Assembly: GCA_964545885.1 (NCBI GenBank)
Contig: CAZJHG010000002.1
Span: 10,421 to 74,420 of the forward strand
Length of the DNA stretch: 64,000 bases
Reading direction: 5' to 3'
Source of the DNA: an uncultured Muribaculaceae bacterium
GTDB taxonomy: Bacteria > Bacillota_I > Bacilli_A > RF39 > UBA660
Shown here: in pieces, positions 3,568 to 50,449 of the stretch
Layout of the letters: each line of letters begins with the position of its first letter
Numbering within the stretch: the first letter of the stretch is position 1
Notes under the pieces: model-generated
Told to the model about the DNA's origin: nothing
The model's database searches: none
The model's input: the letters and a program-made list of their open reading frames with translations, nothing else
Translations under genes and position numbers: made by a program

Positions 3568-3602
3568 AATTTCTATATTACTTAAGTTATATTTATTATT
3601 TT

Positions 3603-3641: not shown

Positions 3642-3709
3642 ATCACTTATTTTTTATTTGAACATATACTTTGTGACCAAATGAAAAAACAACATAAATA
3701 TGTTGCTTT

Positions 3710-4024: not shown

Positions 4025-4305
4025 CTTTTTTTTATCCTTTTACAAAGATTATCAACTTTGACTGACGCATTAATTAAATATGTACTATATTGTCTTGCAA
4101 CTCTGTAAAACTCTGTATATTGCTTTTTATCGATAGATGAGTTTCTAGCAAATCTTTGTGCAGATTCACCAACCCACTCACCAGTTGAAGATGGCATTCC
4201 AGAAATTCTAGTAAATACTTTATTAATAATTGCAAAATAGCTATATGATAAATTTTCGAAATCTTTTCCATATTCGTTTAATAAATTTGTATCAATTTCT
4301 ACCAT
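4021..4305 (-). CDS. WXG100-superfamily protein, 94 aa.
   Basis: Central motif EWVGESAQRF (W-x-G followed by a conserved F) at the hairpin position of a ~95-aa helical protein. Confidence 0.55.
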   Translation of the reverse strand: MVEIDTNLLNEYGKDFENLSYSYFAIINKVFTRISGMPSSTGEWVGESAQRFARNSSIDKKQYTEFYRVARQYSTYLINASVKVDNLCKRIKKR

Positions 4306-4320
4306 TTTATTATTCCTTTG

Positions 4321-4662
4321 CTAATTCATTTGCTCTCTTTGACGACGCTTTTCTTCACGTTCCTCTTCTTCCTCACTTGTAAGAGCTTGCTCGATTTGTC
4401 TACTTAAAGAATTAATTTTATAATTAATTTCAGGTATAATTATGTTTTTTAATTTGTCATTTATATTGCCAATATCTACTCTTATATCACTTATTTTTCC
4501 ATTATCTGCGGATTCACCATCAATTGTAAATGAATCTTTTAGTTTGTCTGCATTTGTAAGGCTACTATAAGTTTTAAGAGTTTGTCTGAGGATATTATTG
4601 ACATCATCTCTTAATGCGTAATATTTACTACGCTTTCTAATTAATTCTTTTGAGCTAGCCAT
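4321..4662 (-). CDS. Coiled-coil protein, 113 aa, with an acidic/basic tail; DUF5082/Lap-like partner candidate.
   Basis: ORF within the operon. Heptad-like pattern and a C-terminal EEEEEREEKRRQREQ tail. Confidence 0.4.
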   Translation of the reverse strand: MASSKELIRKRSKYYALRDDVNNILRQTLKTYSSLTNADKLKDSFTIDGESADNGKISDIRVDIGNINDKLKNIIIPEINYKINSLSRQIEQALTSEEEEEREEKRRQREQMN

Positions 4663-4677
4663 TTCTGCTCATTAAAA

Positions 4678-5169
4678 TTAATGTTGTGCTCCGTCAGATG
4701 GAGTATAAGCAGATTTAAGTTCTTCAGCTTGTCCACTGATAGATTGAGATAATGTAGTTTCGATATTCTCTGTGTATTTTTTAGCATACTCTTCTAATTG
4801 AGTGTTAAATTGTAGTAAATCCTCAATTAAACTATTACAAATGTCTTTAATTGCATTAATAAATGCATGAACAGTTTCTGTTAGTTGTGTTCCAGCAAAA
4901 GCTTCACTTGAATCTATTTCTTTTGCGAAAGTGTCTAATGTAGTTTGCAAATCTTCTACGTAAGTAGTAATTGCTTGTTGCATATCAGGTACTCCATTTA
5001 CATTTATACCAACTACATCTCCTGCAAAAAGCCCTTGTATTTGTGCTTTTGCATCTCCAACAATTCCTGCAAATACTGATGATGCTTTGCTTGCAAAGTC
5101 GCTAATTGCATTTCCAGCAGTCCATTTTAATTTTTCAAATTCTGTTGCTATTGTTCCCATTATATTCAC
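4678..5169 (-). CDS. Helical protein, 163 aa, with an N-terminal KWTAGNAISDF motif. It is related to the C-terminal half of the 204-aa protein at 54944..55558.
   Basis: Shares a W-T-A-G-x(5)-D/S-x-A motif with the 204-aa protein and has no signal peptide. Confidence 0.4.
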   Translation of the reverse strand: MNIMGTIATEFEKLKWTAGNAISDFASKASSVFAGIVGDAKAQIQGLFAGDVVGINVNGVPDMQQAITTYVEDLQTTLDTFAKEIDSSEAFAGTQLTETVHAFINAIKDICNSLIEDLLQFNTQLEEYAKKYTENIETTLSQSISGQAEELKSAYTPSDGAQH

Positions 5170-36000: not shown

Positions 36001-38227
36001 CTTCACTACCAGTGAATTCTGGATAGTTGTAGTATACACTGATGTTCTTTTCTATTGATATAGATTTAGGACCATTTGTATATGTGTCAATATTATCTAC
36101 TGATATTGTCCATGTAATAGTTTTAGCTTCTTTATTATAGATTCCACCATCTAATATAGATTTGCTTTCATCTATTTCGTAAGGTAGTTCATCTACGATG
36201 GTTATTGTAGCTGTACCTTTGTAATCTTTAATAGTTGTTTTATATGTTATTTTATAATCTACTGCATCTTTGGCACTTGTTATTGTATTTGGACCTTTTT
36301 TGGTTACTGTTGGGTCTTCTACATCGGCCGGCTTTAATGTGTAGTAGAAAATTATTATATTACTATTAGAGTCTTCAACTAATTTAATTGTTTTTGAAGA
36401 TTCTGTACCTTCTGCAAGGTTGTAACCTGTTATATTTTTAGCATTTTCTGTAATAGTATCATATACGTATTTGTTATTTACTACTTTAGTATCTGCTAAT
36501 TCTTTGTTAGTAGTTTTTTCTAAATATTTAACTGTATAGCTAGTAGGATTTTTTACTACTTTTAAACTTATTGTAGAAGTGTTACTTGTTACTGTGTATG
36601 TTTCACCATTTATAGTAACTGTACTTACTACATGATATTTAATATCATAAATTTTGCTTTCTGTTCCGGCACAGCCTTCAGTAGCATTATAAGTAAATGT
36701 TCCATCTTCATTAACGTTAATTGTTCCACAAGTTGGTTCATTTTCAAGAACTATTTTGTTTGATACTGTTGATTCCATTATTGTATTAGATGGTCTATCT
36801 TTATGAACTGTTAAAGAGTCGTTACTTAAAATACTGTCATTAACATCGATTGTTATTTGGCTACCTTCTTTAGCTATGTATTTTTCATTTTCAGTATAGT
36901 CATCATCTTTTGTTACCATACTTATTGCAACAACTGGTTGATTGAATTTAAGATCAATTTTTTTATCTGGATAATATGTATTATCTTCTGTTGCTGTTGC
37001 TTTTAGTGTTGCTTCAACGTTTGTGTACATTGCTCCATAATGATTTTCGTCTGCTACTACTTCATATTCAATTTTATAAGTTCCTAATACTGAACTTATT
37101 TCATCATATTTTACAGATAATGTTGTTGTTCCATCTTCATTTTCTGTAATTGTAATGTCTTCACCATATTTAGTTATTAAAGCTTCTTTAGCTTCTTGGG
37201 TTAGCTTGAAACTTGCTGGAATTGTATCTGTTACTGTTGCATCTGTTGCTAAAACATTTTTGATACTTGCAGCGATATTTGACATTGCTGTTTCTAAAGC
37301 TTCTGTATCAGATGCTGAATATGCATATTTTTTTTCACTTGTAGATTTACTTGCTATTTGGTTAGTTAAGAAACTTGCAATATCGTTTGCGCTTGAACCA
37401 AAACCTACTGCGTAAATTTCAGCATTGATTGGATTTCCTTTTATTTCTTTTGCAACTTTTTCAGCTGCTGTTGATGGGATTAGACCACTATTCTTGCAGG
37501 CTTGGGTATCTTCTCTATCTAATGCGTCACTATTACCTGCTCCACATATAGAACCATTACTTAAATTAAAATAAGTTGGAACTCCGTCAGAAATTAGAAT
37601 AACTATTTTAGTATCAGCTGTTGAATCTTTTAATAAATTTTTAGCGGCATTTAAACCGGCTTGAACGTTAGTACCATTGTTTTGAACTTCAGTAATTGAA
37701 TTAATCTTCTGTTTTATAATAGCTAGGTCACTAGTCATATCGCTATATTTAGTTGTTGAATATTGTGATTCATAGTTAGTACCAAATGTTACGATACCAA
37801 TTTTTACATTATTATTGCCATTATTTGGTAACAATTCTTCAACTAAACCTATTGCTGATTCTTTAGCTACATATAATCTAGTATCACATGGTGTAGGCTC
37901 ACTTGGTTTATTACCGGGTCCATCTGGATGATAACCGTCACCTTTTTTGCCGTTGTTATTAGTGTTTGATTTTTCAGCACAATAAGACATACTAGCTGAA
38001 TGGTCCATAACAATGACAATGTCAGCTGTTGGTTGTTTTAATTTAGAAGTTTCAATTTCTAATGTAACTTTAGCTTTGCGATCTGATGTTGCTACGGCTG
38101 TTTTGTTTAAAGTTAATTTACCAGATGTATCTTCAGCTTTTAGATTTTGAGCCATTCCTAAAATACCAACTACTGCTATTATGATGCCAACTATAGTAGT
38201 TATTATTTTTTTCCTTTCTTTTTTCAT
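33044..38227 (-). CDS. Giant surface adhesin, 1727 aa: signal peptide, vWA domain, then alternating isopeptide-forming (SpaA/Cna-B-like) and MucBP-like repeats, and a C-terminal sorting-signal-like tail.
   Basis: vWA MIDAS motif (DIVIVMDHSASMS). At least six copies of a ~70-aa VTKKGP...TITWTI repeat interleaved with GK(L/V)I(V)xHxYxD...GY.L...P MucBP-like repeats. Tail ELPPNTM + hydrophobic stretch + KKK. Confidence 0.8.
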   Translation of the reverse strand: MKKERKKIITTIVGIIIAVVGILGMAQNLKAEDTSGKLTLNKTAVATSDRKAKVTLEIETSKLKQPTADIVIVMDHSASMSYCAEKSNTNNNGKKGDGYHPDGPGNKPSEPTPCDTRLYVAKESAIGLVEELLPNNGNNNVKIGIVTFGTNYESQYSTTKYSDMTSDLAIIKQKINSITEVQNNGTNVQAGLNAAKNLLKDSTADTKIVILISDGVPTYFNLSNGSICGAGNSDALDREDTQACKNSGLIPSTAAEKVAKEIKGNPINAEIYAVGFGSSANDIASFLTNQIASKSTSEKKYAYSASDTEALETAMSNIAASIKNVLATDATVTDTIPASFKLTQEAKEALITKYGEDITITENEDGTTTLSVKYDEISSVLGTYKIEYEVVADENHYGAMYTNVEATLKATATEDNTYYPDKKIDLKFNQPVVAISMVTKDDDYTENEKYIAKEGSQITIDVNDSILSNDSLTVHKDRPSNTIMESTVSNKIVLENEPTCGTINVNEDGTFTYNATEGCAGTESKIYDIKYHVVSTVTINGETYTVTSNTSTISLKVVKNPTSYTVKYLEKTTNKELADTKVVNNKYVYDTITENAKNITGYNLAEGTESSKTIKLVEDSNSNIIIFYYTLKPADVEDPTVTKKGPNTITSAKDAVDYKITYKTTIKDYKGTATITIVDELPYEIDESKSILDGGIYNKEAKTITWTISVDNIDTYTNGPKSISIEKNISVYYNYPEFTGSEVNISNKVITNIKVDTASDKDKEITEDTPVDITGKLIVEHKYIDDQGQEQELVATQPATEKKIGTPYETSPVQVDGYKLSNEPSNKNGVYKEGTTTVTYYYERVEAEITDTIISKTSETEEITSSSDKVTYNVTYKATIKEYNGPVTITIVDTLPYEIDESKSTLQSGDYKGVYNATNKTITWVITKNVDTYANKPEGISSNVETISVSLKYTVVYKNLDATADKVTNKVSGTIKVETTDPINSNDSEDVPVHIKGKVITHHVDESGNTLSSDVETEDKVGKSYTTSKVVIPGYELTEEPSNKNGTYKEGTIEVIYVYKRLGATPTNPVVTKSGTTEITSSTDKNTYTITYDAIVKNYKGNITVTIVDTLPYAIDESKSTLDGGIYNATNKTITWTISYVSEDAEEDLAINITKVIEVYYKDINASTENYTNHVKATLSDDIEETPDNEKEDTHTTDVNIKGKVITYYYLKGTTQELANSKTQSDKVGVTYTTDAKDIEGYELVATPSNATGKYTEKDIVVIYEYTRKIAEITDEVITKKSVLEEITASNTLVDYQIVYTTKITDYKGSATVTIVDYLPYAIDVNASKLDGGIYNATNKTITWTEKIEGINTFQNGTYSVNVTKNILVKYNNMASDKKVINTVKGSTSTDTKDSNGKEAEEEIIASIKGNLIVKHIYKDKDGNEKVLKIEDTKTDYVGYTYTTEAKQFNGYTLSETPSNKTGEYKEEDTIVIYYYDRTPAEIEENIVKKESTNKVVTNVKDAFNYTIKYNTVLNEYEGKAIITIIDQLSYPIDEEKSELNGGKYNSKDLTITWIKEYDVNTYNNKNNEIEVNINLSLYYKDITADTKVVVNKVNTKLELETTDPTETTDETETNLEIKGTVIANYVDRFGNKIASSENYTGLVGESYQTEEKEVENYVLAKVEGNITGTYIDGEIIVTYYYDLEGTGNVEPELPPNTMIDNNALYISLISSSLLIVMLVLKKKILA

Positions 38228-38584
38228 ATATACTCTCCTTTTAATTTTTTTCTATTTGAGATATCTTATGGAGCTTGTATATCTCATAATAGTCGCTAGT
38301 TAGAAACTAGCTTGGTGAAAAATTATGTAACTCGTCAATTGAAATTTGATTGCTACTTAGGATTTTTTTATTAAAAAAGGCCGAATAAAACAATATATTA
38401 TAAATTAATACAATATAAATTGCTTATTCGACCTTTTATTCATAAAACCATTCCCCTGTGCTTATTAAACTGCAATTTCACCATTTGCGACGTTTATACT
38501 AATTTAAATCATATAAATTGTCAACTTTAATTTTAAATTTTAGTCATTTTTTTTGATAAAAATTTGATTTTTAAACAATTTTTG

Positions 38585-38628
38585 AAGCACAAAAAAACAT
38601 TTTTAGTTTATAAAAATGTTTAAAATCA
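38585..38628 (-). terminator. Terminator downstream of the sortase gene.
   Basis: AAACATTTTT-7 nt-AAAAATGTTT hairpin followed by a T-rich tract on the minus strand. Confidence 0.45.
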
Positions 38629-38630
38629 GA

Positions 38631-39431
38631 TTATTCAAGTTCGATAGCACTAATAACATAATAAGTTTTTTCGCCACTATAGGAACAAGTTTGGATAGTG
38701 AGTAAATTGGAGTTTTCGTTATATTCAACATCTCTTGTATAAATTGAATTGTTTAATAAAATTTGAATATGTTCTTTATGATAGTCTTTTGATGTTTCAA
38801 CAACCATGTGTTCATTATCGGTTGTTACTTCTTTTATAGAGAATATTTTATAAATTCGACGTCCACCATCGTGTTGTAATAATATGTATGGATTTTGATT
38901 AAAGAAATCTTTATCTAAAAATTTTTCTAACTTTCTAAATGGTATATCATAAGTAGTGGAATTGTGACCATATACATTTACTTGCTTAGCAGTTGGATCA
39001 GTTCTGAAATCTAAAAATTCTGTACCTTTGACATCCTTTTTTTTATCAATTGAATGATTTAAATAATACTTATTATCAGAAGTTTTAGTTAGTAAAATGT
39101 TGAACAATCCTGGTATTTCTAAACGACCGATAACTTCGTTATTATTATATTTTTTACGATATGATGATAAATCGACATCTTCAGAAAATAAAGATTCAAC
39201 TTGTGACTTTTCACTAACTTTTTCTTCTTCTTTTGATTCTTCTTTAGTGGGAGGTTCATCATCTACTGTTTTAACATCTTTTAACTTAATATCATTTTGA
39301 TTAAGAGTATTTTTTATTTCTTGATTATTTTGGACTAACATTATAGTAGAAGATGCAAATAAAACTACTAGTATGCTAATTATTATATAGAAAATAATAC
39401 TTTTTATAGAAATTTTTTTATTTTTTTCCAT
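38631..39431 (-). CDS. srtB: Class B-type sortase. The start is moved to Met30, which has a GGAGG RBS.
   Basis: TM anchor, catalytic His (NVYGHN), Cys (LTIQTCS) and a downstream Arg. Adjacent to the adhesin gene. Confidence 0.7.
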   Translation of the reverse strand: MEKNKKISIKSIIFYIIISILVVLFASSTIMLVQNNQEIKNTLNQNDIKLKDVKTVDDEPPTKEESKEEEKVSEKSQVESLFSEDVDLSSYRKKYNNNEVIGRLEIPGLFNILLTKTSDNKYYLNHSIDKKKDVKGTEFLDFRTDPTAKQVNVYGHNSTTYDIPFRKLEKFLDKDFFNQNPYILLQHDGGRRIYKIFSIKEVTTDNEHMVVETSKDYHKEHIQILLNNSIYTRDVEYNENSNLLTIQTCSYSGEKTYYVISAIELE

Positions 39432-39618
39432 AGTATACCTCCATCTAAATGAGTTCGAACTTGTTATGATTATTTTTTTTATAATACCTTTTTTTTTACT
39501 ATTATTCAAGTGAATCACATTAATATTTTATTCTTTTACTTTATTATGTATATGATTTTTTTCGTAGTTAACGCAAAGGTATTATAACATATTTTTATAA
39601 ATAATTTTATATTTCCAA

Positions 39619-39709
39619 TTATTGAAATTTACTAATATTAAGGATTATTGCTATGGATACCATTGATATTAATAAAGATGAACCACCATAAGATAGAAAT
39701 GGTAAGGTT
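39619..39709 (-). pseudogene. Displaced 3' coding fragment of the SEDS (spoVE/ftsW-like) gene, encoding ...LPFLSYGGSSLLISMVSIAIILNISKFQ*.
   Basis: Minus-strand translation gives the hallmark SEDS C-terminal motif T-G-I-T-L-P-F-L-S-Y-G-G-S-S. The fragment is in frame with the 9-bp repeat that also ends the 5' portion at 46181..46189. Confidence 0.7.
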
Positions 39710-39718
39710 ATACCAGTT
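39710..39718. repeat. Left copy of the 9-bp direct repeat ATACCAGTT (recombination core) flanking the inserted element.
   Basis: Identical 9-mer at 46181..46189. Both lie in the same reading frame of the SEDS gene (codons T-G-I). Confidence 0.65.
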
Positions 39719-39783
39719 ACAAGTTTTACGGGAGAAAATATTTTGTGTTGCTTTTTTACGGGAGATGAAACAAGATAAAAAAA

Positions 39784-41364
39784 TTACTTTAAATATCTAG
39801 AAAGTTCTTGAAATCTAAAGAATACATTTACATTTTTATCATTATCTATTTCTACTCTATCGATTAATTCAACTACTATTGCACGAGTAGGATACTTTGA
39901 TGATAAAAACTTGTTTACTAATTCTGTACAAGTATCATAGTCTAATTTTTTTATTTTTGATAACATTTTAATCTTATCTTTTTCTAGTTTTTTCTTTTGT
40001 GTAGTTGCATTGTTTAAATCTTTATTATATCTATCAATTAAGTTAGAAAATATATTTTCAGGAATTTTACCTTGTACTTTATCCATATATAATTGTTCAA
40101 TAGCGTTGTTATATTTGGCTATTTCTTTTATTAAGATATCTATTTGTTTCTGCAATTCCGTTGATTCTTCATGTAAAATTGCATTTACTTCTTTGGTTAA
40201 TGATTTACCATCATATTCTTTAATAAATAGTTTGCAAATATTTCTAATAACTGATATCAAATCATCCTCTAGTAGATTATAGTTTAATCTATGGATATTA
40301 CATATTCCATACTTACCTTTTTTGCTATACTGATTGCATTGTGTATAATGAGATTTATCTCTTTTATTCTTTCTTTCTAAAATGCTAATCGTATGTCCAC
40401 ATTCTTTACACTTTAATAATCCACTAAATAAATATCTATCTTTATTCTTTTCTATCGTCTTTGAATTTGCTTTTAACATTTTATTTACTTTATCGAAAAT
40501 TTCTTTATCAATTATTGGTTCGTGAGTATTCTCAACTATAATATAATTTTCTTTTCTTACTGCTCTAACTTTATTGGAATTATATCTAACCTTATTGAAA
40601 GTATTTTGAACCATATTACCTAAATACATTTCGCTAGTTAAGATGCTTCTTATTGTTTGAGGCCTCCAAATGCCATAACCATCATTTTCAGTAATTGCTG
40701 CTCCTCTAGTTTCCTTCTTGTAAATTATTGGTATTGGAATTTTTTCAAGAGTTAATATATTAGCTATCTTATAACAACTATTACCTGCATATGCCATTTT
40801 AAAAATTCTTTTTACAACTTGTGATGCATTTGGGTCTATAACTAATTTGTGATGATCGGTTGGATCTTTCAAATATCCATACTTTGGAATTGATCCAATA
40901 TATTCTCCTTTTTTTTGCCTGGCAGTAAATGCTGATTTAACCTTTCTAGATGTATCTCTTAAGATATAGTCATTATAAGTTAATTTCATCGAAATCATAC
41001 TATCCCCCTCGAGTGAATCATAACCATCGTTTATTGCAATGTATCTTACACCTTTTTCACAAAAATAATCTTCGATAAATGAACCTGTTTGGTATAATTC
41101 ACGACCTAATCTTGAAAGGTCTTTCGTTAGTATACAATCTATTTTCCCTGATTCTATATCTTCAATCATTCTTTTAAATCCCGGTCTTTCAAAATTACCA
41201 CCAGAGTATCCGTCATCAACATATTCCTCTATAAGTTCTAGATTATGGTATTTACAAAATGATTCAATAATCATTCTTTGACTCTCAATTGAAGTACTCT
41301 CGTCTTTTTTTAATAAGTCCTCTTTTGACAACCTTAAATAATTACCGCATTTATATCTCTTCAT
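39784..41364 (-). CDS. Large serine recombinase: resolvase catalytic domain, recombinase domain, zinc ribbon and coiled-coil.
   Basis: N-terminal YLRLSKED (catalytic Ser) and DGYSGGNFERPGF...LSRLGRE. Cys pairs CKECGH...C. 526 aa. Confidence 0.85.
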   Translation of the reverse strand: MKRYKCGNYLRLSKEDLLKKDESTSIESQRMIIESFCKYHNLELIEEYVDDGYSGGNFERPGFKRMIEDIESGKIDCILTKDLSRLGRELYQTGSFIEDYFCEKGVRYIAINDGYDSLEGDSMISMKLTYNDYILRDTSRKVKSAFTARQKKGEYIGSIPKYGYLKDPTDHHKLVIDPNASQVVKRIFKMAYAGNSCYKIANILTLEKIPIPIIYKKETRGAAITENDGYGIWRPQTIRSILTSEMYLGNMVQNTFNKVRYNSNKVRAVRKENYIIVENTHEPIIDKEIFDKVNKMLKANSKTIEKNKDRYLFSGLLKCKECGHTISILERKNKRDKSHYTQCNQYSKKGKYGICNIHRLNYNLLEDDLISVIRNICKLFIKEYDGKSLTKEVNAILHEESTELQKQIDILIKEIAKYNNAIEQLYMDKVQGKIPENIFSNLIDRYNKDLNNATTQKKKLEKDKIKMLSKIKKLDYDTCTELVNKFLSSKYPTRAIVVELIDRVEIDNDKNVNVFFRFQELSRYLK

Positions 41365-41902
41365 AACTTATTTTTCTCCTATATAATATGTTAATTAGAG
41401 ACACTTAAATATTGCATTAATTATAATATATTTTAGTGTCTCTTTTATTGTTACTAATTAGCCTATTTTTGACTTTCCTCATCTTTTTTTATTTCCCTTA
41501 TATATATTAAAAAATGCTCTTTTATAATTCGGTATAAATCTTTACCATTTGAATTATAAGTTAATTTAATATTATAATTTAAATTATTGCTTTTCATCTC
41601 GGTATCACTCTCCTCTAAAGTTTATTAAAAATTACGTAAATTTATGCAGCAAAAAAATCAATACATTTTGTATTGACTTTTCTTATTTTATTACTATTTT
41701 TAAAATTCTTTATTGATTTTGTTTTATCATAAACATTTTTGTTAAAATCAAAAGTAAACGTTGGTATTCTTTCTTTAAAGTCTGTTTAGGTATTATACTT
41801 TATAATTACCTCTGCGAATATTTTATTCAAATTTTATATCTCCTTTTGCAAATAATAAAGATTGCCCTTAAAATGGCAATCTTTTTTGCTTTATTTATTA
41901 TT

Positions 41903-42700
41903 TTACCAAGATAAACCGCTCCATGTTGCTTGTGCAGTCGACATCGAATCATAAGATTCTATTATAGATACAGAAACACTTGAATCAAAATTAATTCCAC
42001 CTGTACCAATACTTACTGCATTACTAACGGAACTACTAACTGTTTTTTGAGCATGCTTATAATCACCGTATGCATTTAATGTTAGGATAGTTGCCGATGT
42101 TAACTTTTGAATATCAAAATACATATGTGAACTGAGTGCTGTTACTGTTGTTGTTGATGTGTTTGCTGGAAGTTTAAAAGTTACTGCATATCCCGTACCA
42201 CTTAATTCCCAGGCTCCTGAAGTACTATTTTCATAATAACATACCGAATTGGCTGAATCGTTAATGTCGGCAATTCTTTTAAAAAATTTACTTGATGAAA
42301 CCCCAGAAATAGTACTATCTATTCCGATTCCTTGAATATCATAACTTCTTGTACTAGGCATTTTTTTCCATACTAGGTCGTTTTTATATCTATAATAACT
42401 ACCATTTTTAACGATTGTTGTTGTCATTTTCTTATAATTTGTTTCTGTATAGCCATTTGTATTTCCTAATGGAATTATTAATGCTTCGTCATTTGAATTA
42501 TTGTATTCTTCTTCTGTAATTTCTACAGTAATTGATATTGGATTTGTTTTATTATTTATAGATTTTGTCGAAGCATTACTATGTGTTGTTATTGTTTTAT
42601 AGTATTTTGTAGTTTGAGCAACTATTTCTCCATTTAAATTTTTGTTGTTATCGAACTCCTCTTGTTCCATAGTAATGATTTCTCTCTCAGAAAAGCCCAT
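41903..42700 (-). CDS. Secreted-protein paralog A, mature-domain ORF. The signal-peptide segment lies upstream in the same frame, beyond an in-frame TAA.
   Basis: About 40% identity to the 248-aa paralog (YYKTI...NGYTETNYKKMTT...TRSYDI.GIG...ATW.G.SW). Lacks its own signal peptide. Confidence 0.5.
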   Translation of the reverse strand: MGFSEREIITMEQEEFDNNKNLNGEIVAQTTKYYKTITTHSNASTKSINNKTNPISITVEITEEEYNNSNDEALIIPLGNTNGYTETNYKKMTTTIVKNGSYYRYKNDLVWKKMPSTRSYDIQGIGIDSTISGVSSSKFFKRIADINDSANSVCYYENSTSGAWELSGTGYAVTFKLPANTSTTTVTALSSHMYFDIQKLTSATILTLNAYGDYKHAQKTVSSSVSNAVSIGTGGINFDSSVSVSIIESYDSMSTAQATWSGLSW

Positions 42701-42721
42701 ATTTTGTAAATTTTCTAATTA

Positions 42722-42853
42722 CTGTTCTGAAATTTTTATATTATTAGCATTAGTATAATACCCGTTTTCGTCTAGTTCAAATGCGCTTACATTTTTGATC
42801 GAAAATAATAAAGTGAATATTGAGAATATTGGGAATAAAATATTTTTTTTCAT
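42722..42853 (-). other. 44-codon ORF encoding a signal peptide (MKKNILFPIFSIFTLLFSIKNVSA|FELDENGYY...). It is in frame with the downstream 265-aa ORF and separated from it by a single TAA at 42719..42721.
   Basis: Direct translation. Classic n/h/c signal-peptide regions with a VSA cleavage site. Confidence 0.45.
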
Positions 42854-43052
42854 ATAATATGATTTTCCTTTCTTTTTTTAATTGATAATTATTTGCTTTT
42901 TAATTTACCACCATCCAATCTTTATTTCTCAAAATATTTCAACTACTGTTTTGTATTTTAACTATAATTTGTGTATAAATCTTTTTTATATTGTTCACTA
43001 TGAGATTTTTTTATCCTAAAAGATATTTTTAAAATTATTGAATAATTTACAA

Positions 43053-43799
43053 TTACCAACTGCCTGTCCATGTAGCATTAGCAGTGTTGATAGAATCATA
43101 ATAATTAGCTATTGTGGATTTAAGTATTATTCCCCCTGATTCCACGGTGTATTTTTGAGCGTTAGAATAACTAATTGTTTCAGTTGCATGAGCATAATCT
43201 CCATATGCATATTGTTTGATGATTGTACTAGAATTATTTGCTTTTTCCATATCAACATATAAGATTTGATTTAATGAAGATAAAGAACCAGATGGTAAAG
43301 AGAAAGAAGCGCCCACTCCATAAGTTCCTATATATGGGGTGTATACTGTTTCTGTATCGCAATCGCCATTAGAATAACAATAATTTTGTACAAATGATAC
43401 ACTTGATTCTGGTTTAACACTTGACGGAAAACCTATCCCTATAATATCGTAACTTCTTGTATTAGGAATTGTCTTCCACTCAAGTATAACTTTATATCTA
43501 TATGTTGTTCCATTTTTTGCTATAGAGGTGGTCATTTTCTTATAGTTTGTTTCTGTATAACCATTTGTTGCGCTAAGTGGTAATATTAAACAATTATCTT
43601 TATAACTTTCGTATTCTTCTTTTGATATTTCTACGCTATAAGATTTTGTATTTTCGTTCATTGAATATGCAAAATTTTCACTATTTGCAAAATTTATTGT
43701 TTTATAATATTTTGTAACAGACACTAACTCTTTGTCTTCGGCTGATACTACTATTGGTATTGCCATTAATATTAATAAAATTAAAACTCCTTTTTTCAT
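43053..43799 (-). CDS. Secreted-protein paralog B, 248 aa, with an intact signal peptide.
   Basis: MKKGVLILLILMAIPIVVSA signal peptide. Paralogous to 41903..42700. Ends in W-x-G-S-W. Confidence 0.55.
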   Translation of the reverse strand: MKKGVLILLILMAIPIVVSAEDKELVSVTKYYKTINFANSENFAYSMNENTKSYSVEISKEEYESYKDNCLILPLSATNGYTETNYKKMTTSIAKNGTTYRYKVILEWKTIPNTRSYDIIGIGFPSSVKPESSVSFVQNYCYSNGDCDTETVYTPYIGTYGVGASFSLPSGSLSSLNQILYVDMEKANNSSTIIKQYAYGDYAHATETISYSNAQKYTVESGGIILKSTIANYYDSINTANATWTGSW

Positions 43800-43925
43800 A
43801 TAGTATCATTCCTTTCAATGTTAGTTCCTTTATTGATTAAATAATATCACTTACAAAAAAATACATAACACCTTATTAGGCGGATTATGTATCTTAAAAA
43901 GAGAATCTTCGTTAAAATTGTGTAT

Positions 43926-44714
43926 TTATTTATATAAGACATTATTGTATTCTTTATCAATTATTGACAGCTTGTATTCTTTTTTTTCTTTTATATTATC
44001 ACTTGTACTATATTCGAGAAAGAGAATTAGATTGTTATCACTTATTTTATTTTTCTTCGTTTCTTTTTTGCTTTCATTAAAAAGTATCGAAAAGTTTTCT
44101 AATAATTCACTAATATAATACATTTTAATATTTCCCTCATCATCGTATTGTTCATTAAAAGTATAATTTAATATTACTTCATTATCATTCAGTATAGATA
44201 TTTTTAATTTACTTATTCTTAGTTCATCAGGAGTGCCCTTATCATTTGATTGATATATCAGATTTTTTAAAAACACTAATTCCTTATTTTTTTGATTTAT
44301 TATATAACCTTCTGAATAAAATGACTCATTATCTAAAACAAATTTTATATATCCATATTTGTTATAATTATTATATACAAACGATAATAAGCAAATATTT
44401 AAGAAGATTAGTATTAATATAATTACTATTAAAAAAATATTTTTTCTTATAAAAACATTAGTGTTTTTGATTTTGGGATTTTTAGGAGATGTAGATTCTT
44501 GCTTACCAGATAACAATTCTTTAGTGGTAATTCCTAATTCATCAGCTAATTTATTAACAATTGAAATATCAGGAGTTGTTATACCACATTCCCACTTTGA
44601 TACTGCTTTGCTATTAACTCCCATTTTTTGACCAAGTTGCTCTTGAGTAAGTTTTTTTTCTTTTCTTAATTTTGCAATTAATTTACCTATTTTTGCTTGA
44701 TCCATACACATCAC
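43926..44714 (-). CDS. Membrane-anchored XRE-family (Cro/CI HTH) transcriptional regulator with an extracytoplasmic C-terminal domain.
   Basis: HTH LTQEQLGQKMGVNSKAVSKWECG, a single TM (FLIVIILILIFLNICLLSFV), and a ~150-aa C-terminal domain. Confidence 0.65.
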   Translation of the reverse strand: MMCMDQAKIGKLIAKLRKEKKLTQEQLGQKMGVNSKAVSKWECGITTPDISIVNKLADELGITTKELLSGKQESTSPKNPKIKNTNVFIRKNIFLIVIILILIFLNICLLSFVYNNYNKYGYIKFVLDNESFYSEGYIINQKNKELVFLKNLIYQSNDKGTPDELRISKLKISILNDNEVILNYTFNEQYDDEGNIKMYYISELLENFSILFNESKKETKKNKISDNNLILFLEYSTSDNIKEKKEYKLSIIDKEYNNVLYK

Positions 44715-45146
44715 CTTTTACTAATGGATTATGTATTATTTTAATTTATTTACTTTCTTTTGTAAATATTAAATCAATTTTCTCTATATCTCACGTACCT
44801 ATCGTATAACAGACACAAAAGTAATGCAAATATACCATTGGTCAAGTTTTACTTTATTAGATTTCTGCTATCACTAAAGATATACTTAACTCTTTTATCT
44901 ATTTCAGATTCTTCGGGCTTAAAATTTTGTTCTAACGCCTCCAACCTTTTATATTTTCTATGTTCTTCTTACTACTTTACCATATCTATTTCATATACAA
45001 ATGTTTAAATTAATTTTTGCAAACAGAAAAGCAGTACATTTCTAAAAAAGATAATGTGCTGCTATTTATCTATATTTGTTAGATTATTTATAATGTTGGT
45101 TATAAAGATTTTTCCATCAATTTTAAAATAAAAATTATATTACAAA

Positions 45147-45755
45147 TTATTGACAGTTATTTTCTATCTGCATATCGGCATCACCTATAATGACATCATT
45201 ATTACTTGATGTAGTATTACAAACAATGATATTGAAATTATCGTATTTGTACAATTTGCTTTCGCTATTTTTGTCTGATTCGATTATTTTGGCTTTAGTC
45301 AATATATCATCAAAAGTTACTAATTCATTTTTTAAAGAAATTTCTATATTATATTTATGATTATTTTCAATTAAAGATAACTTGAAATCTGTATTCCCGT
45401 AATAGTAATCAACCTTATTATAATTAAATGCAAATATTTTTTCATATTTTGTATTACTATTTACAGTTACTGAAAAATCATAATTAACAAATTTCTTTAT
45501 TTGTATATTGTCAATGGGACAGGTAAAATTAATACCTTTTAATTTCCAAATTACTGTAGTAATATCTTGTTCTCTAGTACAATAATAAGTATCTATAAAA
45601 ATTCCTCGTTTAACCCAACTATCGTCATCTGCTAAATTTTCTTTCCAGCTAATAATTGGACTATGTTTCAATATTCTTGCTTGTAATGTATCTAATAATA
45701 AAATTCCGATTAAAATTCCTAAAATAATAAATATCTTTCTTATGTTTTTTTTCAT
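45147..45755 (-). CDS. Small secreted or membrane-anchored hypothetical protein, 202 aa.
   Basis: N-terminal signal/anchor MKKNIRKIFIILGILIGILLL. Confidence 0.45.
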   Translation of the reverse strand: MKKNIRKIFIILGILIGILLLDTLQARILKHSPIISWKENLADDDSWVKRGIFIDTYYCTREQDITTVIWKLKGINFTCPIDNIQIKKFVNYDFSVTVNSNTKYEKIFAFNYNKVDYYYGNTDFKLSLIENNHKYNIEISLKNELVTFDDILTKAKIIESDKNSESKLYKYDNFNIIVCNTTSSNNDVIIGDADMQIENNCQ

Positions 45756-46095
45756 ATTTCCTCCGATTTCATAAATTTCTTTTTATAATTATATTATTTT
45801 TTGCTTATTAACTTCCACCACTTATTGAGAGAAATAGGTATCTTTATAAGAGAATAAACCTTATTGCAGATTGTTAAAGCAAAACATAACTTTCAATAAG
45901 TATTTATATTACTTATCTTCTTCTAATATATTTTTAATAAATCATATTAAAAGACTTGTGTTTCTTTCTCATTTATATTTTTCCATCACATTTTGAGTTC
46001 CGATCGACTTTGTTTTTCCCAACATTGTAACCTCTTAATATCCCTTAAGGAAAATGTATTTTTTTGTCAAAAAAACAGTTTTTCCTGTTAGTTTG

Positions 46096-47172
46096 CTATT
46101 TTTTATTTTTTATAAAATCTTCTAAATTCTTTATTTTAAAGGGAAAAAGGCATTTTTTTATTTTCTCCCCTACAAATGTAATACCAGTTGTAGGAATAGT
46201 ACCAGTAACAACTAATATATTTAGTGCTACTTGAAGAATCAAACCGAATGATAACCCAAATGATAAATATTTTTTAAATAAATCTTTTTGTGATAAAGAT
46301 ATTCTTATAGAACGATAAAAAATTATACTAAATAATCCTAATACTAAAATTACACCAAGTATGCCAAATTCCTCAGCTATTATACTAAATATAAAATCAG
46401 TTTGAGGTTCTGGAAGATAAAAATTTTTTTGAATAGAATTACCAAAACCAACTCCTAATAAACCTGAAGGAACAATAGCATATAGACTTTGAATTATTTG
46501 GAAACCACTACCTAATGGATCACTCCATGGATTTAAATATGCAGTTATTCTTTGAAGACGATATGGAGCTATGACTATTAAAATAACTATCCCTATTAAA
46601 CCTAATATTCCAACTTTTATAAAAAACGATAAGTCTGGACCTGATACGTAGATTAATACTACTAAAGTTAGGACAATTACCATAGCAGTTCCAAAGTCAG
46701 GCTCTAACATTATTAAAAAGAAAAAAATACAAATAACTAAAAATAATGGTAAAAGACCTTTCTTTATATCTTTAATACTTTTATTATTATGAGATAAATA
46801 TTTAGATGTATAAATAATTAGACCTAATTTAGAAAACTCTGACGGCTGGATACCTAAGGACCCTAAACCAAACCAACTACGAGAACCATTTCTTACTTTA
46901 CCTATTCCTGGTATCAAGACTAATATTAATAATGAAAGACATACTAAAAGTATATTATTTGAATTTTTTTCTAATATAGATAAATCTAATTTAGTTATAA
47001 TTAACATTACTATTAAACCAAGTAAAAAAAATATTAATTGAGATTTTAAATACTTAAATTCATCATTATATTTATATGCAGCCCATATGCTACTGGAGGA
47101 ATAAACCATTAAAATACCAAAACATATTAATATAATAGTTGACACTAAAAGAATTTTATCTATTTTCTTCAT
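46096..47172 (-). CDS. spoVE: SEDS-family peptidoglycan glycosyltransferase (SpoVE/FtsW/RodA-like). Its conserved C-terminus is replaced by 27 element-encoded residues.
   Basis: Motifs PSEFSK, PDFGTAMV, YLPEPQTDFIFS and LNILVVTGTIPTTGITF. It lacks the LPFxSYGGSS motif, which is found instead at 39619..39709. Confidence 0.7.
   Translation of the reverse strand: MKKIDKILLVSTIILICFGILMVYSSSSIWAAYKYNDEFKYLKSQLIFFLLGLIVMLIITKLDLSILEKNSNNILLVCLSLLILVLIPGIGKVRNGSRSWFGLGSLGIQPSEFSKLGLIIYTSKYLSHNNKSIKDIKKGLLPLFLVICIFFFLIMLEPDFGTAMVIVLTLVVLIYVSGPDLSFFIKVGILGLIGIVILIVIAPYRLQRITAYLNPWSDPLGSGFQIIQSLYAIVPSGLLGVGFGNSIQKNFYLPEPQTDFIFSIIAEEFGILGVILVLGLFSIIFYRSIRISLSQKDLFKKYLSFGLSFGLILQVALNILVVTGTIPTTGITFVGEKIKKCLFPFKIKNLEDFIKNKK
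46181..46189. repeat. Right copy of the 9-bp direct repeat ATACCAGTT.
   Basis: See the left copy. Adjacent inverted-repeat arm TCTCCCCTACAAA. Confidence 0.65.
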
Positions 47173-47230
47173 GTAATCACCTATTTAAATATATTTTACT
47201 TTATTAAAAAAATAATATGAGCTAGTCATA

Positions 47231-48436
47231 TTATTTGAATTTTCTTTTCTTTTTAGTAAATAAATTTAAACATAAGAGAAGTACTATAATAAATGTTATA
47301 ACAATAATTATAGATATTGGAGATTCTGTATCTTCTGGTTCGATAGAAAATATTTTATCTTTTAAATGAACGTTATATGTTGAGATGATTTTATCATTTA
47401 CAATTATATCTATGTAACCAAGATTATCTCCAACTTGATTAGATGGTGTTATCTTATCTGCAATATGATATTCTAATGATACATTGTCTAGTTCTTCTTC
47501 TGGTAATGTTACTATTATGTCTTTTTCGGCTGTTACATCATATTCATCTATTGTACCATTTTCAACTTGAATTTTTTTTAATAATTCATCTTTTTTAATT
47601 AATGTTTTACTACTAAATGTAATGGTAGATAAATAATTATAAATACTATGAGTTTCCAAAATATGAGTTGAAGCATAAGCATTTACATCACAATTCATAA
47701 CAATTAACATATAGTTTGTATCGTTTATATTAGATGTAGATGCCAATAGTAAACCAGCTTCTGGTGTATATCCTGATTTATTACCTGTTAAAAGATTTTC
47801 ATCTAAGCCGTGAAATGTCTCATAACTTCTTGTATAATTATATACAATTAAACCATTCGATAAAGTCTTTTGATTAGTAGAAAATACTTTTTTAAAAGTA
47901 TCATTCTTTAATGCTTCTTTTAGTAGGCGGGATATTTCGCGAGCAGTAGATATATTATTGTCATCTCCACCATATGAATCTGCAAAAGTGGAATTACGTA
48001 AACCTAATTTTTGAGCTTCAAAATTCATTAAGATATTAAATTCTTCGGTTGAACCAGCTGTATGAAGTGCTAAAGCCTGAGAAGCATCAGCACCAGAAGG
48101 TAACATCATAGCATATAAAAGATCTAAATAGCTTAACTTGTCTCCTACTTCTAGACCAGCACAAGTAAAACCATATAAATTATATAAATCATCTTCAGTA
48201 ATAGTAACTTTTTCACTTAAATCATCGACATTATTAATAACAGTATAAGCTGTCATTATCTTAGTTAAAGAAGCCAATATCTGTTTCTTGTCAGGATTCT
48301 TTTCATATACTACTTGGTCAGTATCTAAATTAACAAGAATTACTGAATCAGCAGTTACTTCGATGGGAAGTTCTAAACATTTAGTAGTTGGAATGATTAA
48401 GAAAAAACAACAAATAAAAAACAAGACTTTTTTCAT
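47231..48436 (-). CDS. dacB: Serine-type D-Ala-D-Ala carboxypeptidase (DacB/DacF-like low-MW PBP). The start is moved to Met7, which has a GGAAGTG RBS.
   Basis: Signal peptide. SxxK (ASLTKIM) and KSG motifs. C-terminal TM anchor. Confidence 0.75.
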   Translation of the reverse strand: MKKVLFFICCFFLIIPTTKCLELPIEVTADSVILVNLDTDQVVYEKNPDKKQILASLTKIMTAYTVINNVDDLSEKVTITEDDLYNLYGFTCAGLEVGDKLSYLDLLYAMMLPSGADASQALALHTAGSTEEFNILMNFEAQKLGLRNSTFADSYGGDDNNISTAREISRLLKEALKNDTFKKVFSTNQKTLSNGLIVYNYTRSYETFHGLDENLLTGNKSGYTPEAGLLLASTSNINDTNYMLIVMNCDVNAYASTHILETHSIYNYLSTITFSSKTLIKKDELLKKIQVENGTIDEYDVTAEKDIIVTLPEEELDNVSLEYHIADKITPSNQVGDNLGYIDIIVNDKIISTYNVHLKDKIFSIEPEDTESPISIIIVITFIIVLLLCLNLFTKKKRKFK

Positions 48437-48544
48437 TACATCACTTCCTATCATGCTTTTTTATTTTAACAAATTAATAGTGTTTTTTCAACCAAGGTAC
48501 TAGAATTATTTAAAAATTAAAGCATATATTATTTTGGTGATAAC

Positions 48545-50449
48545 ATGTTTATTAAAGATAAACAATTTAGAATAAAACTAGTACTGGTTATTGTTTTTAT
48601 AATATTTTTTATTATTTTTTTTAGAATTATTTATTTACAAGTTTATCGTAATGATGAACTTGGTACGTTAGCTGAGGCGTTGTGGCAAAGAAATTTACCT
48701 GTTACTGCAGATCGTGGAAGAATACTTGATCGTAACGGGAAAGTTCTAGCGACTAATATAACGACTACTACATTATATGCCGTTCCTAATCAAATTTTGA
48801 ATAAAGAAGATGCTGCACAAAAGTTAGCTAAAATATTAGAAGCTAATTATGATGATATATATGCTCATTTAACTAAAAAAACTTCTTTAGAGAAAATAAA
48901 TCCAGAAGGAAGACAACTTAATAGTGATATTGCTGATAAGATAAATGAGCTTAATATAGATGGTTTATACTTAATGAAAGAGTCTAAAAGATACTATCCT
49001 TATGGAGAAGTATTATCTCATGTACTTGGATATGTTGGAATAGATAATCAAGGACTTTCGGGATTGGAATTAAAATATGATGAATATCTTACTGGGAAGA
49101 ATGGTTCAATAAAATATGTTTCTGATGGTAAAGGTAATAGACTTACTAATAGTGAAGTATATGAACAACCACAGAATGGAATGGATATTTATTTAACTAT
49201 TGATATAGATATTCAACTGGCATTAGAAAAAGAACTAGAAAATGCTACAGCAAAATATAATCCGGAAGAAAGCTTGGCTATGGTAATGAATCCAAATACT
49301 GGGGAAATATTAGCTATGGGGTCAAACCCTACTTTCGATTCGAACAATTATAAAGAATATGACTTAGAAACTATTAATAGGAACTTGCCTATTTGGAAAA
49401 ATTATGAACCTGGGTCCACTTTCAAAATAATTACTTTGGCTGCTTCATTAGAAGAAAAAACAATTAATTTATTTGAAGATACTTATTATGATGGTGGTGC
49501 TATAAATGTTGAGGGAGCTAGGATAAAATGTTGGAAATCTGGTGGGCATGGTGCAGAGACTTTCTTGCAAGTAGTACAGAATTCATGTAACCCGGGGTTT
49601 GTTGTTATGGGGCAAAAGCTAGGTACTGAAACACTTTATAAATATGTTGAAAACTTTGGATTTACGGAAAAAACTGGTATTGATTTAAATGGTGAATCTA
49701 GTGGTATTATGTTTGATTTGGAAGATATTGGGCCTGTTGAACAAGCTACTATATCGTTTGGTCAAGGTATAAGTGTTACTCCGATACAACAAGTTACTGG
49801 AGTTAGTGCTGCTATTAATGGTGGAAATCTGTATACGCCCTATGTTGTTAAATATATAACTGAACCAGAGACAGATGATATTATTTATGAAAATAAACCA
49901 CTTTTAAAAAGAAAAGTTATTAGTGAAGAAACTTCTGAAATGGTTAGGTATGCTCTTGAAACGGTAGTTAATAGTGGGACTGGTAAAAATGCGTATATAG
50001 AAAACTATCGTGTTGGTGGTAAAACTGGAACAGCTCAAAAGGTAAATAATGGAGCTTATATGGTTGGTAATTATATCGTATCTTTTATTGGCTTTTTACC
50101 AGCTGATAAACCAGAGTATGTTGTGTATGTGGCAATTGATCATCCACAAGGAATTACACAATATGGTGGAACTGTTTCGGCACCAATTGCTAAAAGTATA
50201 ATGGAAAGTATCATTAGTATTAAAGAAATTGAGCCGAGTGCTGATATTACCCCTAGAACGTATACTTGGTTAGATACTAAATATGTTAAGTTATCATCGG
50301 TAGTTGGAAAAAGTAAAAAAGAAGCTATTTCTACTTTAAAAGGGTTTAAATTAGAATTTAGTGGTACTGGAGATACCGTAATATATCAAGAGCCAAGTGC
50401 AGATACTTATGTAAAAGAAGGTTCTACAGTTAAAGTGATGCTTAATTAA
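48545..50449 (+). CDS. spoVD: Class B penicillin-binding protein with a single C-terminal PASTA domain (SpoVD-like).
   Basis: N-terminal TM and dimerisation domain. Transpeptidase motifs STFK, SCN and KTGTA. One PASTA domain; PBP2B typically has two. Confidence 0.8.
   Translation: MFIKDKQFRIKLVLVIVFIIFFIIFFRIIYLQVYRNDELGTLAEALWQRNLPVTADRGRILDRNGKVLATNITTTTLYAVPNQILNKEDAAQKLAKILEANYDDIYAHLTKKTSLEKINPEGRQLNSDIADKINELNIDGLYLMKESKRYYPYGEVLSHVLGYVGIDNQGLSGLELKYDEYLTGKNGSIKYVSDGKGNRLTNSEVYEQPQNGMDIYLTIDIDIQLALEKELENATAKYNPEESLAMVMNPNTGEILAMGSNPTFDSNNYKEYDLETINRNLPIWKNYEPGSTFKIITLAASLEEKTINLFEDTYYDGGAINVEGARIKCWKSGGHGAETFLQVVQNSCNPGFVVMGQKLGTETLYKYVENFGFTEKTGIDLNGESSGIMFDLEDIGPVEQATISFGQGISVTPIQQVTGVSAAINGGNLYTPYVVKYITEPETDDIIYENKPLLKRKVISEETSEMVRYALETVVNSGTGKNAYIENYRVGGKTGTAQKVNNGAYMVGNYIVSFIGFLPADKPEYVVYVAIDHPQGITQYGGTVSAPIAKSIMESIISIKEIEPSADITPRTYTWLDTKYVKLSSVVGKSKKEAISTLKGFKLEFSGTGDTVIYQEPSADTYVKEGSTVKVMLN

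Follow-up and report, generated by a model that had tools for sequence, protein, structure and literature searches.

A large serine recombinase element splits a spoVE-like SEDS gene in an uncultured RF39 bacterium and belongs to a recombinase clade that recurs at one codon of that gene

In a 64,000-nucleotide stretch of DNA from an uncultured Muribaculaceae bacterium (GTDB lineage Bacteria; Bacillota_I; Bacilli_A; RF39; UBA660), hereafter the window (GenBank assembly GCA_964545885.1, contig CAZJHG010000002.1, positions 10,421 to 74,420 of the forward strand), a gene of the SEDS family is split by an element that carries a large serine recombinase (LSR) gene. We regard it as practically certain that this is a site-specific LSR element interrupting the SEDS gene. 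The attachment site of the recombinase clade to which it belongs is one fixed position in the dcw-type, spoVE-like SEDS gene of low-GC gut Bacilli. Taken as a whole, the evidence is best explained, and we hold this with slightly more confidence than doubt, by a gene-intervening element of the gin/skin type, whose excision in the mother cell would restore SpoVE.

The SEDS gene is read from the minus strand, and its open reading frame (ORF, 47172..46096) encodes 358 aa with the C-terminus ...TGTIPTTGITFVGEKIKKCLFPFKIKNLEDFIKNKK before the stop codon. The frame is normal through ...TGTIPTTGIT and then runs into a foreign tail of 25 aa, which ends at 46096. A 9-bp repeat, AACTGGTAT in the minus-strand reading, stands at 46189..46181 and again at 39718..39710. 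When 47172..46181 is joined to 39709..39619, an intact SEDS protein of 360 aa ending in ...TTGITLPFLSYGGSSLLISMVSIAIILNISKFQ and a stop codon is obtained, which matches the Pfam family FTSW_RODA_SPOVE over residues 9-359 and aligns with the Pseudomonas FtsW structures through the last transmembrane helix. It is this last helix, together with the invariant LPFLSYGGSS motif, that the insertion takes off the SEDS protein. The parts of the split gene and the ends of the element are as follows.

39719..46180, minus strand: intervening element, 6,462 bp (one core copy being left to each flank), missing from the empty site of contig L001
46181..47172, minus strand: SEDS 5' segment, codons 1-330 and the first two bases of codon 331, core included
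39619..39709, minus strand: SEDS 3' segment, which completes the Ile-331 codon with its last base and goes on with TLPFLSYGGSSLLISMVSIAIILNISKFQ and a stop codon, with LPFLSYGGSS and the final helix
46181..46189, minus strand: attL core, AACTGGTAT
39710..39718, minus strand: attR core, AACTGGTAT
46157..46180, minus strand: left-end arm, TACATTTGTAGGGGAGAAAAT..., an imperfect inverted repeat of the right-end arm
39719..39742, minus strand: right-end arm, TTTTCTCCCGTAAAACTTGTAAC
39759..39770, minus strand: TCTCCCGTAAAA, the outer portion of the right-end arm repeated directly some 30 nt into the element, in the stretch from the recombinase stop to attR

The attP reconstructed from both ends, TTTTCTCCCGTAAAACTTGTAACT followed by GGTATTACATTTGTAGGGGAGAAAA, is a near-palindrome in which the outer 10 nt are identical in both arms. 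The junction patterns of the window type are AAACTTGTAAC[T/A]GGTATTACATTTGT for attP and CCTACAAC[T/A]GGTATAAC for attB. An original prediction, made from the letters of the window alone, had given the coordinates of the split gene, of the 9-bp repeat and of the C-terminal block downstream, a joined protein of about 360 aa, imperfect inverted arms that would form a near-palindromic attP, a second direct arm copy, and a recombinase close to one element end. Each of these was recovered here, the last as a gene (41364..39784) that stops 65 nt from the end.

The uninterrupted orthologue, for which that prediction had proposed a comparison of related genomes, is found in contig L001, where the gene order of carboxypeptidase, SEDS and sortase is as in the window. 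Positions 1..2789 of L001 correspond to 48963..46175 of the window at 90% DNA identity and positions 2775..4754 to 39718..37751 at 85%, and the junction consists of the left flank, the core and the right flank, with one synonymous change within the core. The SEDS protein encoded there (P0001, 360 aa) is 96% identical to the rejoined window protein. The empty site has exactly this sequence. A precise end-to-end recombination would restore the SEDS gene without a scar, and the element is, judged from its sequence, likely to be competent for excision and for restoring the gene. Moreover, the SEDS homologues P0045 and P0048 end in ...TTGITFVWEKNKKVHFSN, cut at the same residue as the window gene; their locus, L002, holds a related element of 5.1 kb, and its intact counterpart is L003.

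The same site is used far beyond these relatives. A recombinase-profile scan of one genome per GTDB species gave 80 loci, and the clade was sampled with 49 members, namely the window, 36 loci of the genome scan and 12 metagenome contigs. A SEDS 3' fragment (G[V/I]TLPFLSYGGSS...) lies 70-100 nt past the recombinase stop in 41 of the 49; of these, 31 come from species-representative genomes of GTDB (among loci L005-L040) and 10 from metagenome contigs. Among the other eight, four are truncated where the contig stops, one is a tandem array in the same site and three have a switched target. The same-site clade reaches down to 40% recombinase identity, and its hosts are uncultured low-GC Bacilli and Erysipelotrichales, two orders, including metagenome-assembled genomes (MAGs) of Thomasclavelia spiroformis and Longicatena, Clostridium sp. 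CAG:914 and the cultured Erysipelatoclostridium sp. AM42-17. In AM42-17 (contig NZ_QUIN01000005), the recombinase of the split SEDS gene lies at 9995-11527 of L040. The nearest named relatives of the window host are Candidatus Coprovivens, which is GTDB UBA11963 of order RF39, family CAG-1000 (PMC8035907). The window recombinase protein itself has no record in the contig index that was searched, and a near relative of the window element (recombinase 89% identical) occupies the same site in seven independent samples, all of one species. Metagenomes with the window-type element include SRR6425795, SRR12529332 and ERZ13405072. The structural reading of the original prediction, a serine-recombinase element in a SpoVE/FtsW-type SEDS gene, is thus borne out by a scarless empty site and by a clade dedicated to the site.

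In the 17 loci with both ends visible, the elements measure from 2.7 kb (L029) to 10.7 kb (L009), and those of L031 and L032 are larger still, with the 5' fragment beyond the 10-kb flank. The break falls after ...P-x-T-G in all 17, the site being P-x-T-G followed by [V/I]-T-L-P-F, and family-wide the two junctions share only GG(T/G) of the Gly codon, the GG of which is the likely crossover dinucleotide by this comparison. The extra arm copy is met again in many subfamilies, significant alone in 10 of 31 loci and weaker in most others; it stands at the equivalent position in L002, L007-L009, L014, L015, L017, L023, L085 and L086 and may be an accessory recombinase-binding site. At locus L012 (506-9134), two different SEDS-clade elements lie in tandem in one site, with recombinases at 506-2077 and 7383-8942 and an attP-like hybrid junction between the elements, which is evidence of repeated integration at the site.

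Because of the gene order in the Erysipelotrichales loci (mraY-murD-[SEDS]-murG-murB-...-ftsA-ftsZ) and in the RF39-type loci (spoVD-mraY-[SEDS], then murG in L027), we take the target to be the SEDS gene of the dcw cluster. According to Shrestha et al., the dcw SEDS protein and bPBP (a penicillin-binding protein of class B) of sporulating Firmicutes are SpoVE and SpoVD, not FtsW and FtsI, and in C. difficile the dcw SpoVE and SpoVD are dispensable for vegetative division (PMC10693644); the same authors describe a mixed SEDS/bPBP pattern in Erysipelotrichia. The rejoined proteins were scored with the NCBIfam models for SpoVE (TIGR02615, an 'exception' model with a cut-off of 448.8 bits) and FtsW (TIGR02614, an equivalog with a cut-off of 337.5 bits), and with that for RodA.

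Window: SpoVE 421.0, FtsW 400.7, RodA 296.6 bits
L007: SpoVE 445.6, FtsW 417.5, RodA 324.4 bits
L022: SpoVE 450.8, FtsW 412.0, RodA 331.3 bits
L029: SpoVE 451.8, FtsW 407.9, RodA 322.3 bits
L039: SpoVE 404.0, FtsW 385.2, RodA 306.0 bits
L040: SpoVE 393.9, FtsW 365.3, RodA 290.9 bits

SpoVE is the top-scoring model in all six, with FtsW lower in each, and the SpoVE cut-off is reached by the orthologues of L022 and L029 only. Two further genes of peptidoglycan synthesis adjoin the SEDS gene in the window.

47231..48454, minus strand: D-Ala-D-Ala carboxypeptidase, Peptidase_S11 and PBP5_C domains, upstream of the SEDS gene
48545..50449, plus strand: class B penicillin-binding protein with one PASTA domain, intact, passing the SpoVD equivalog (717.9 against a cut-off of 688)

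The divergent gene had been called SpoVD-like in the original prediction, and the equivalog model agrees with that name. The neighbouring gene had been called a DacB-like carboxypeptidase; it is a carboxypeptidase, and its domains are the generic Peptidase_S11 and PBP5_C, which do not bear out the likeness to DacB.

The spoVD gene is intact in the window, and its orthologue is split by other LSR elements in five relatives. The break lies between ...QNSCN and PGF..., at about residue 349, in L002 and L022, where the recombinase at the spoVD site has 565 aa and is 25% identical to that of the window, and between ...TPIQ and QVT..., at about residue 412, in L008, L025 and L030.

L002, 3709-7612: split spoVD
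L022, 1186-5602: split spoVD
L008, 147-1782: split spoVD
L025, 1902-3522: split spoVD
L030, 2111-3731: split spoVD

The SEDS gene is split too in all five of these genomes, so the pair must be dispensable for growth there. Furthermore, a sister recombinase clade, 36-38% identical to the window recombinase, splits spoIVA; in at least 13 loci the gene is broken between ...RMVxTPW and YDEE... by elements of 2.6-11 kb. Past the recombinase comes the 3' part of spoIVA, and the 5' part (residues 1-122) lies 2.6-11 kb upstream.

L044, 8554-11920: split spoIVA
L049, 7648-11980: split spoIVA
L058, 7749-11981: split spoIVA
L057, 150-11980: split spoIVA
L043, L050-L052, L060, L071, L075, L128 and L134: further split spoIVA loci

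The Spore_IV_A-family homologues of the intact copy in L046 are named stage IV sporulation protein A by their sources, and spoIVA is found in related low-GC Bacilli MAGs. For spoIVA no role is known other than in sporulation. The spoIVA loci and the window were found to share no informative flanking genes.

The genes of the window element all lie on the minus strand.

45147..45755, minus strand: 202-aa cargo protein that has a hydrophobic segment at its N-terminus and matches no family, common to the elements of L002 and L086
43926..44714, minus strand: 262-aa XRE-type helix-turn-helix regulator with a membrane segment, also in the elements of L002 and L086
43053..43799, minus strand: 248-aa secreted cargo protein without a family match, a paralogue of the 265-aa protein
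41903..42700, minus strand: 265-aa cargo protein, the secreted paralogue of the 248-aa protein
41884..41857, minus strand: terminator-like hairpin after the 265-aa gene
41463..41597, minus strand: ORF of 44 aa with the ribosome-binding site GGAGG, separated by 98 nt from the recombinase gene downstream
39784..41364, minus strand: LSR of 526 aa with Resolvase, Recombinase and Zn_ribbon_recom domains

The R11/S13 catalytic motif of the recombinase is invariant in 43 homologues. Its best relatives of solved structure are the TnpX catalytic domain (E 1e-24) and SprA of SP-beta (E 1e-16), and its best NCBIfam match is CcrB, far under the cut-off of that model. A prophage origin was considered and rejected, because PHROGs matched only the integrase and the helix-turn-helix regulator and no structural, packaging or lysis genes; nor does a phage source fit the recombinase, to which no phage record is more than 35% identical. 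Defence-system models matched nothing in the cargo beyond the helix-turn-helix domain, and no relaxase/Mob or conjugation gene was found in the window cargo by the family-model and PHROGs scans. The insert is a non-phage integrative cassette. Cargo differs among the relatives, and in the minimal elements of L022, L026 and L029 (2.7-2.9 kb) it consists solely of an antitoxin-like gene and a RelE-like toxin gene.

L022, 9015-9622: antitoxin-like and RelE-like toxin pair
L026, 8988-9633: antitoxin-like and RelE-like toxin pair
L029, 4017-4557: antitoxin-like and RelE-like toxin pair

At locus L174 (836-1147), a TraG / type IV coupling-protein fragment adjoins a recombinase of the SEDS-targeting clade, a sign that conjugative elements may carry some members of the family or be their origin.

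Similarity clustering of the 17 complete elements found the recombinase alone to be present in all of them. By direct inspection, an ORF of 39-80 aa with a ribosome-binding site precedes the recombinase gene in each of the 26 SEDS-clade loci examined, with the shared motif ...NG-x-x-L-x-E-I-L-K-E-x-[FY]-L-x-Y-[IL]..., and the same ORF family stands upstream of the recombinase in all eight spoIVA-clade elements examined. The only parts kept in all elements examined are the recombinase, this ORF of about 45 aa just upstream of it, and the imperfect inverted arms. No Pfam, PHROG or solved-structure match was found for the small ORF, nor any similarity to known directionality factors, which dock at the hinge of coiled coil and zinc ribbon (PMC12286644); GirX, the proven directionality factor of gin, has 42 aa and no recognisable motif (PMC5595907). 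We take the small ORF to be a candidate recombination directionality factor.

Purifying selection acts on all element genes compared among the window, L002 and L086, their ratios of non-synonymous to synonymous substitution (dN/dS) being 0.06-0.23, the gene of the 202-aa cargo protein lying at about 0.19-0.23. The 17 N-terminal SEDS fragments examined, and their recombinases, are all intact ORFs, and the conserved motif is kept in 40 of the 41 SEDS 3' fragments, the exception being L034. How an unselected copy degenerates is seen in L018, where a decayed second SEDS 3' fragment (7267-7350; IMLHFLSYASSF...; IMLHFLSYASSFLL...) lies 1.1 kb downstream of the intact copy and is preceded by the relic arm of another element subfamily.

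LSR elements in sigK, spsM, spoVFB, spoVR, gerE and yabG are excised during sporulation (PMC4191935, PMC5025042, PMC5595907, PMC10747680). From the anatomy of the sequence and the empty site we propose that the recombinase alone would integrate the cassette at the conserved site, and that it would excise the cassette as a circle when joined by the small protein, which would play the part of a directionality factor such as GirX, SprB or CD1234. From the identities of the targets and this precedent, a sporulation timing is proposed: excision would take place in the terminal mother cell during sporulation, where SpoVE could then be made for cortex synthesis, and the forespore would keep the cassette. 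The cassette would further spread horizontally between hosts and re-enter the same conserved site. Whether excision is timed to sporulation seems to us evenly balanced. The promoter scans bear little on it: 80 sites came out of the sigma-70 scan where chance alone would give 75, and promoter calls are unreliable at the 25% GC of this DNA. CATA-type boxes occur upstream of both spoVD and the SEDS gene and are non-diagnostic at this GC content.

A number of observations weigh against an element excised in the mother cell. The rejoined window protein scores under the SpoVE cut-off (421.0 vs 448.8, with a match over positions 1-354 of 354), it passes the FtsW equivalog, and its orthologues are named 'putative lipid II flippase FtsW' by NCBI. 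Recombinase identity goes only in part with SEDS identity (Spearman 0.51, Mantel p about 0.004): the recombinases of L007 and L008 are 98% identical and their SEDS genes 71%, which points to horizontal mobility, and L010 and L025 are incongruent in the opposite sense, with SEDS genes 87% and recombinases 51% identical. Among the window, L002 and L086, the synonymous divergence (dS) of the recombinase is 0.21-0.49 vs 0.86-1.37 for flanking host genes. By these comparisons the elements are horizontally mobile and thus true mobile elements, and the family is old, functional and passed between species; toxin-antitoxin pairs or the TraG fragment are carried by some of them. The intact fragments were considered as evidence of selection while the gene is split, and this use of them is weakened by horizontal transfer: because the elements move, intact split fragments do not by themselves prove selection while interrupted. 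Only two of the 120 closest SEDS protein clusters are truncated at the insertion site. A plain disruptive insertion, which the original prediction had named as its alternative, gains some weight from the horizontal mobility. The excised form was not met with: an attP-specific 26-mer had no match in viral and JGI metagenome contigs, collections with almost no close relatives of the element, so that this negative carries no weight, and the short clade contigs L085 and L173-L175 (short Logan contigs among them), checked as circles, are integrated or truncated forms without terminal overlap. In most subfamilies the small ORF is preceded, at a distance of 45-60 nt, by a CAT(A/T) box. Such a box is compatible with the -10 elements of the mother-cell factors sigma-E or sigma-K, and at 25% GC it is not diagnostic. 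No sporulation-only genes were found among most large ORFs of the window, and in the RF39-type loci only housekeeping genes, no sporulation genes, lie downstream of the site. RF39 has been predicted to form spores, with a 'reduced presence' of spoVD (PMC10868615, the supplement of which has no entries for ftsW, rodA, spoVE or family CAG-1000), and SpoMAG gives RF39 MAGs a sporulation probability of 0% (PMC12536801).

The main rival to developmental excision is an ordinary selfish integrative or mobilisable cassette, which would use a conserved coding motif as a broad-host site, knock out a dispensable gene and be excised for transfer only, its carriers being cortex-defective or past sporulation; we hold this possible but not probable. 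Precedent exists for it in the many LSR phages and elements that knock out genes their hosts can spare and are under no developmental control, for example Bxb1 in groEL1. It is favoured also by the mobility of the elements and their incongruence with the host gene, by the variable cargo including RelE-like toxin-antitoxin pairs and a TraG fragment, by the two elements in tandem in one site at one locus, by the intact alleles that most close relatives carry, and by the SpoMAG scoring of RF39 as non-sporulating (PMC12536801). A purely selfish cassette is, however, hard to reconcile with a dedicated clade that keeps one site across two orders and down to 40% recombinase identity, or with other LSR lineages that hit spoVD and spoIVA, a pattern otherwise known only from developmentally excised elements. 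Decay of the motif affects none of the 17 N-terminal fragments and one of the 41 3' fragments (L034), whereas the unselected relic in L018 did decay. Moreover, the element occurs in T. spiroformis, a species that forms spores.

A reversible switch at the population level, of the kind described as regulated gene integrity or active lysogeny, would toggle the SEDS gene in some dividing cells and bet-hedge sporulation capacity or the state of the envelope. A recombinase with a candidate directionality factor would allow recombination in both directions, occupied and empty alleles occur within species (P0045 vs P0011, L086 vs P0047), in a mixed population yin was excised from yabG whatever the growth stage (PMC10747680), and candidates for regulated gene integrity have been surveyed (PMC7192596). 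Yet gain and loss between strains would account equally well for the presence/absence polymorphism, and no circles or mixed junctions were seen within one sample, in collections that are poor in this element type; such a switch is in our opinion distinctly improbable. It is very unlikely that the target is instead an essential division FtsW, whose truncated form still works or whose host, with a reduced genome, is shedding peptidoglycan synthesis. The rejoined protein does pass the FtsW equivalog and not the SpoVE cut-off, the gene lies in the dcw cluster, and the RF39 ancestor was inferred to have lost most penicillin-binding proteins (PMC10868615), but LPFLSYGGSS, which is invariant, and the final transmembrane helix are in the segment that is lost, no orthologue tested scores higher with another model than with SpoVE, the SEDS fragments are without decay, and the precise, clade-specific targeting of three sporulation-type genes is unlike random decay. 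An assembly artefact or a chimera as the source of the split gene and the repeat, which the original prediction had named as grounds for refuting it and which is considered because the window may come from a metagenome assembly, can be practically dismissed: nothing was found in its favour, and the same architecture with consistent junctions is present in dozens of independent assemblies across projects, including an isolate genome. Finally, a broader form of the developmental explanation, which we think improbable, is that a guild of small cassettes gates the SpoVD-SpoVE pair and the coat-basement protein SpoIVA, so that completion of the spore would be reversible, horizontally transferable and switched at the level of the population and not only in the mother cell; if this were true, the split genes would explain why gene-content predictors disagree on sporulation in RF39.

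The element shares three features with the known intervening-element class, namely an insertion within a gene with an intact rejoined ORF, an LSR, and a short core with imperfect inverted repeats. It resembles gin, which lies in gerE of B. cereus ATCC 10987 (GirC and GirX; PMC5595907), in being a non-prophage cassette in coding sequence with scarless rejoining, in pairing the LSR with a motif-less partner of about 42 aa (the proven directionality factor in gin, a candidate here) and in its 9-bp core. It differs in that gerE is a transcription factor gene and the present target a SEDS polymerase gene, in that sporulation-timed excision is proven for gin and proposed here, and in that the present family occurs in dozens of species of uncultured lineages and is horizontally mobile. 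With skin in sigK (SpoIVCA in B. subtilis, CD1231 and CD1234 in C. difficile; PMC5025042; bioRxiv 10.1101/2022.02.25.481979), it shares the strain-polymorphic presence, the variable size with the recombinase alone in common (Galperin et al., 15 skin elements), the short core between imperfect inverted repeats, and a small directionality factor, which governs skin excision and is a candidate here. Skin, however, is prophage-derived and targets sigK, while the present element has no phage genes and its recombinase is distant from characterised ones. SP-beta in spsM (SprA and SprB; PMC4191935, PMC5499854) also joins an LSR to a small factor, a candidate here, and its excision restores a mother-cell gene of the spore envelope, as is proposed here, but it is an active phage of 134 kb, in contrast to a cassette of 6.5 kb with family members down to 2.7 kb and no phage functions. 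Tn4451/Tn4453 (TnpX) and SCC (CcrAB/CcrC) are likewise small non-phage cassettes moved by an LSR; unlike them, the window cargo was found to have no mobilisation/relaxase gene and no resistance genes, and SCC spares the gene at its attachment site, whereas the window element has a single fixed site within a coding sequence, which it inactivates.

Other features of the neighbourhood are noted here. The carboxypeptidase gene has a sigma-A-like promoter with an extended -10 (TTGAAA-17-TGnTAAAAT, 48463-48491), conserved across species, and is followed by a conserved hairpin with a T-run at about 47195-47225. The SEDS gene therefore probably uses a promoter of its own, which was not identified in the promoter scans. 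Next to the 3' SEDS fragment, the window carries the genes of a 1,727-aa surface protein and a class B sortase (33044-39518), and the homologue of the surface protein in L002/L003 has VWA and MucBP domains. A type VII secretion EssC ATPase and a WXG100-domain protein are encoded at 42-3323 and 54944-55558. In several loci of uncultured Bacilli, collagen-repeat proteins resembling the exosporium protein BclA are encoded near or right at recombinase insertion sites, for example in L009 (13426-14394) and downstream of the recombinases in L045, L056 and L072.

The class of intervening elements is already known; what is new are the targets, namely the cortex polymerase gene spoVE, its partner spoVD and spoIVA, which encodes a morphogenetic ATPase, and also the recombinase clade and the host range. 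The original prediction had remarked that spoVE was not described as a target, and no report of spoVE, spoVD or spoIVA in this role was found in the literature searched, which leaves most subscription journals outside it. The known targets, sigK, spsM, spoVFB, spoVR, gerE and yabG, are almost all in cultured Bacillus and Clostridium, and the present family places the phenomenon in RF39 and Erysipelotrichales, abundant and largely uncultured gut lineages, where a whole recombinase clade is devoted to a single codon and its elements range from 2.7 kb to over 10 kb. The compact sets of recombinase, partner protein and att sites with a defined attB could serve as parts for genome engineering. With Erysipelatoclostridium sp. 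AM42-17 as a cultured carrier, the developmental hypothesis can be put to a direct test. Moreover, predictors of sporulation that work from gene content will count split spoVD, spoVE and spoIVA as missing or as pseudogenes, and such miscounting may contribute to the conflicting calls on sporulation in RF39 (PMC10868615 vs PMC12536801).

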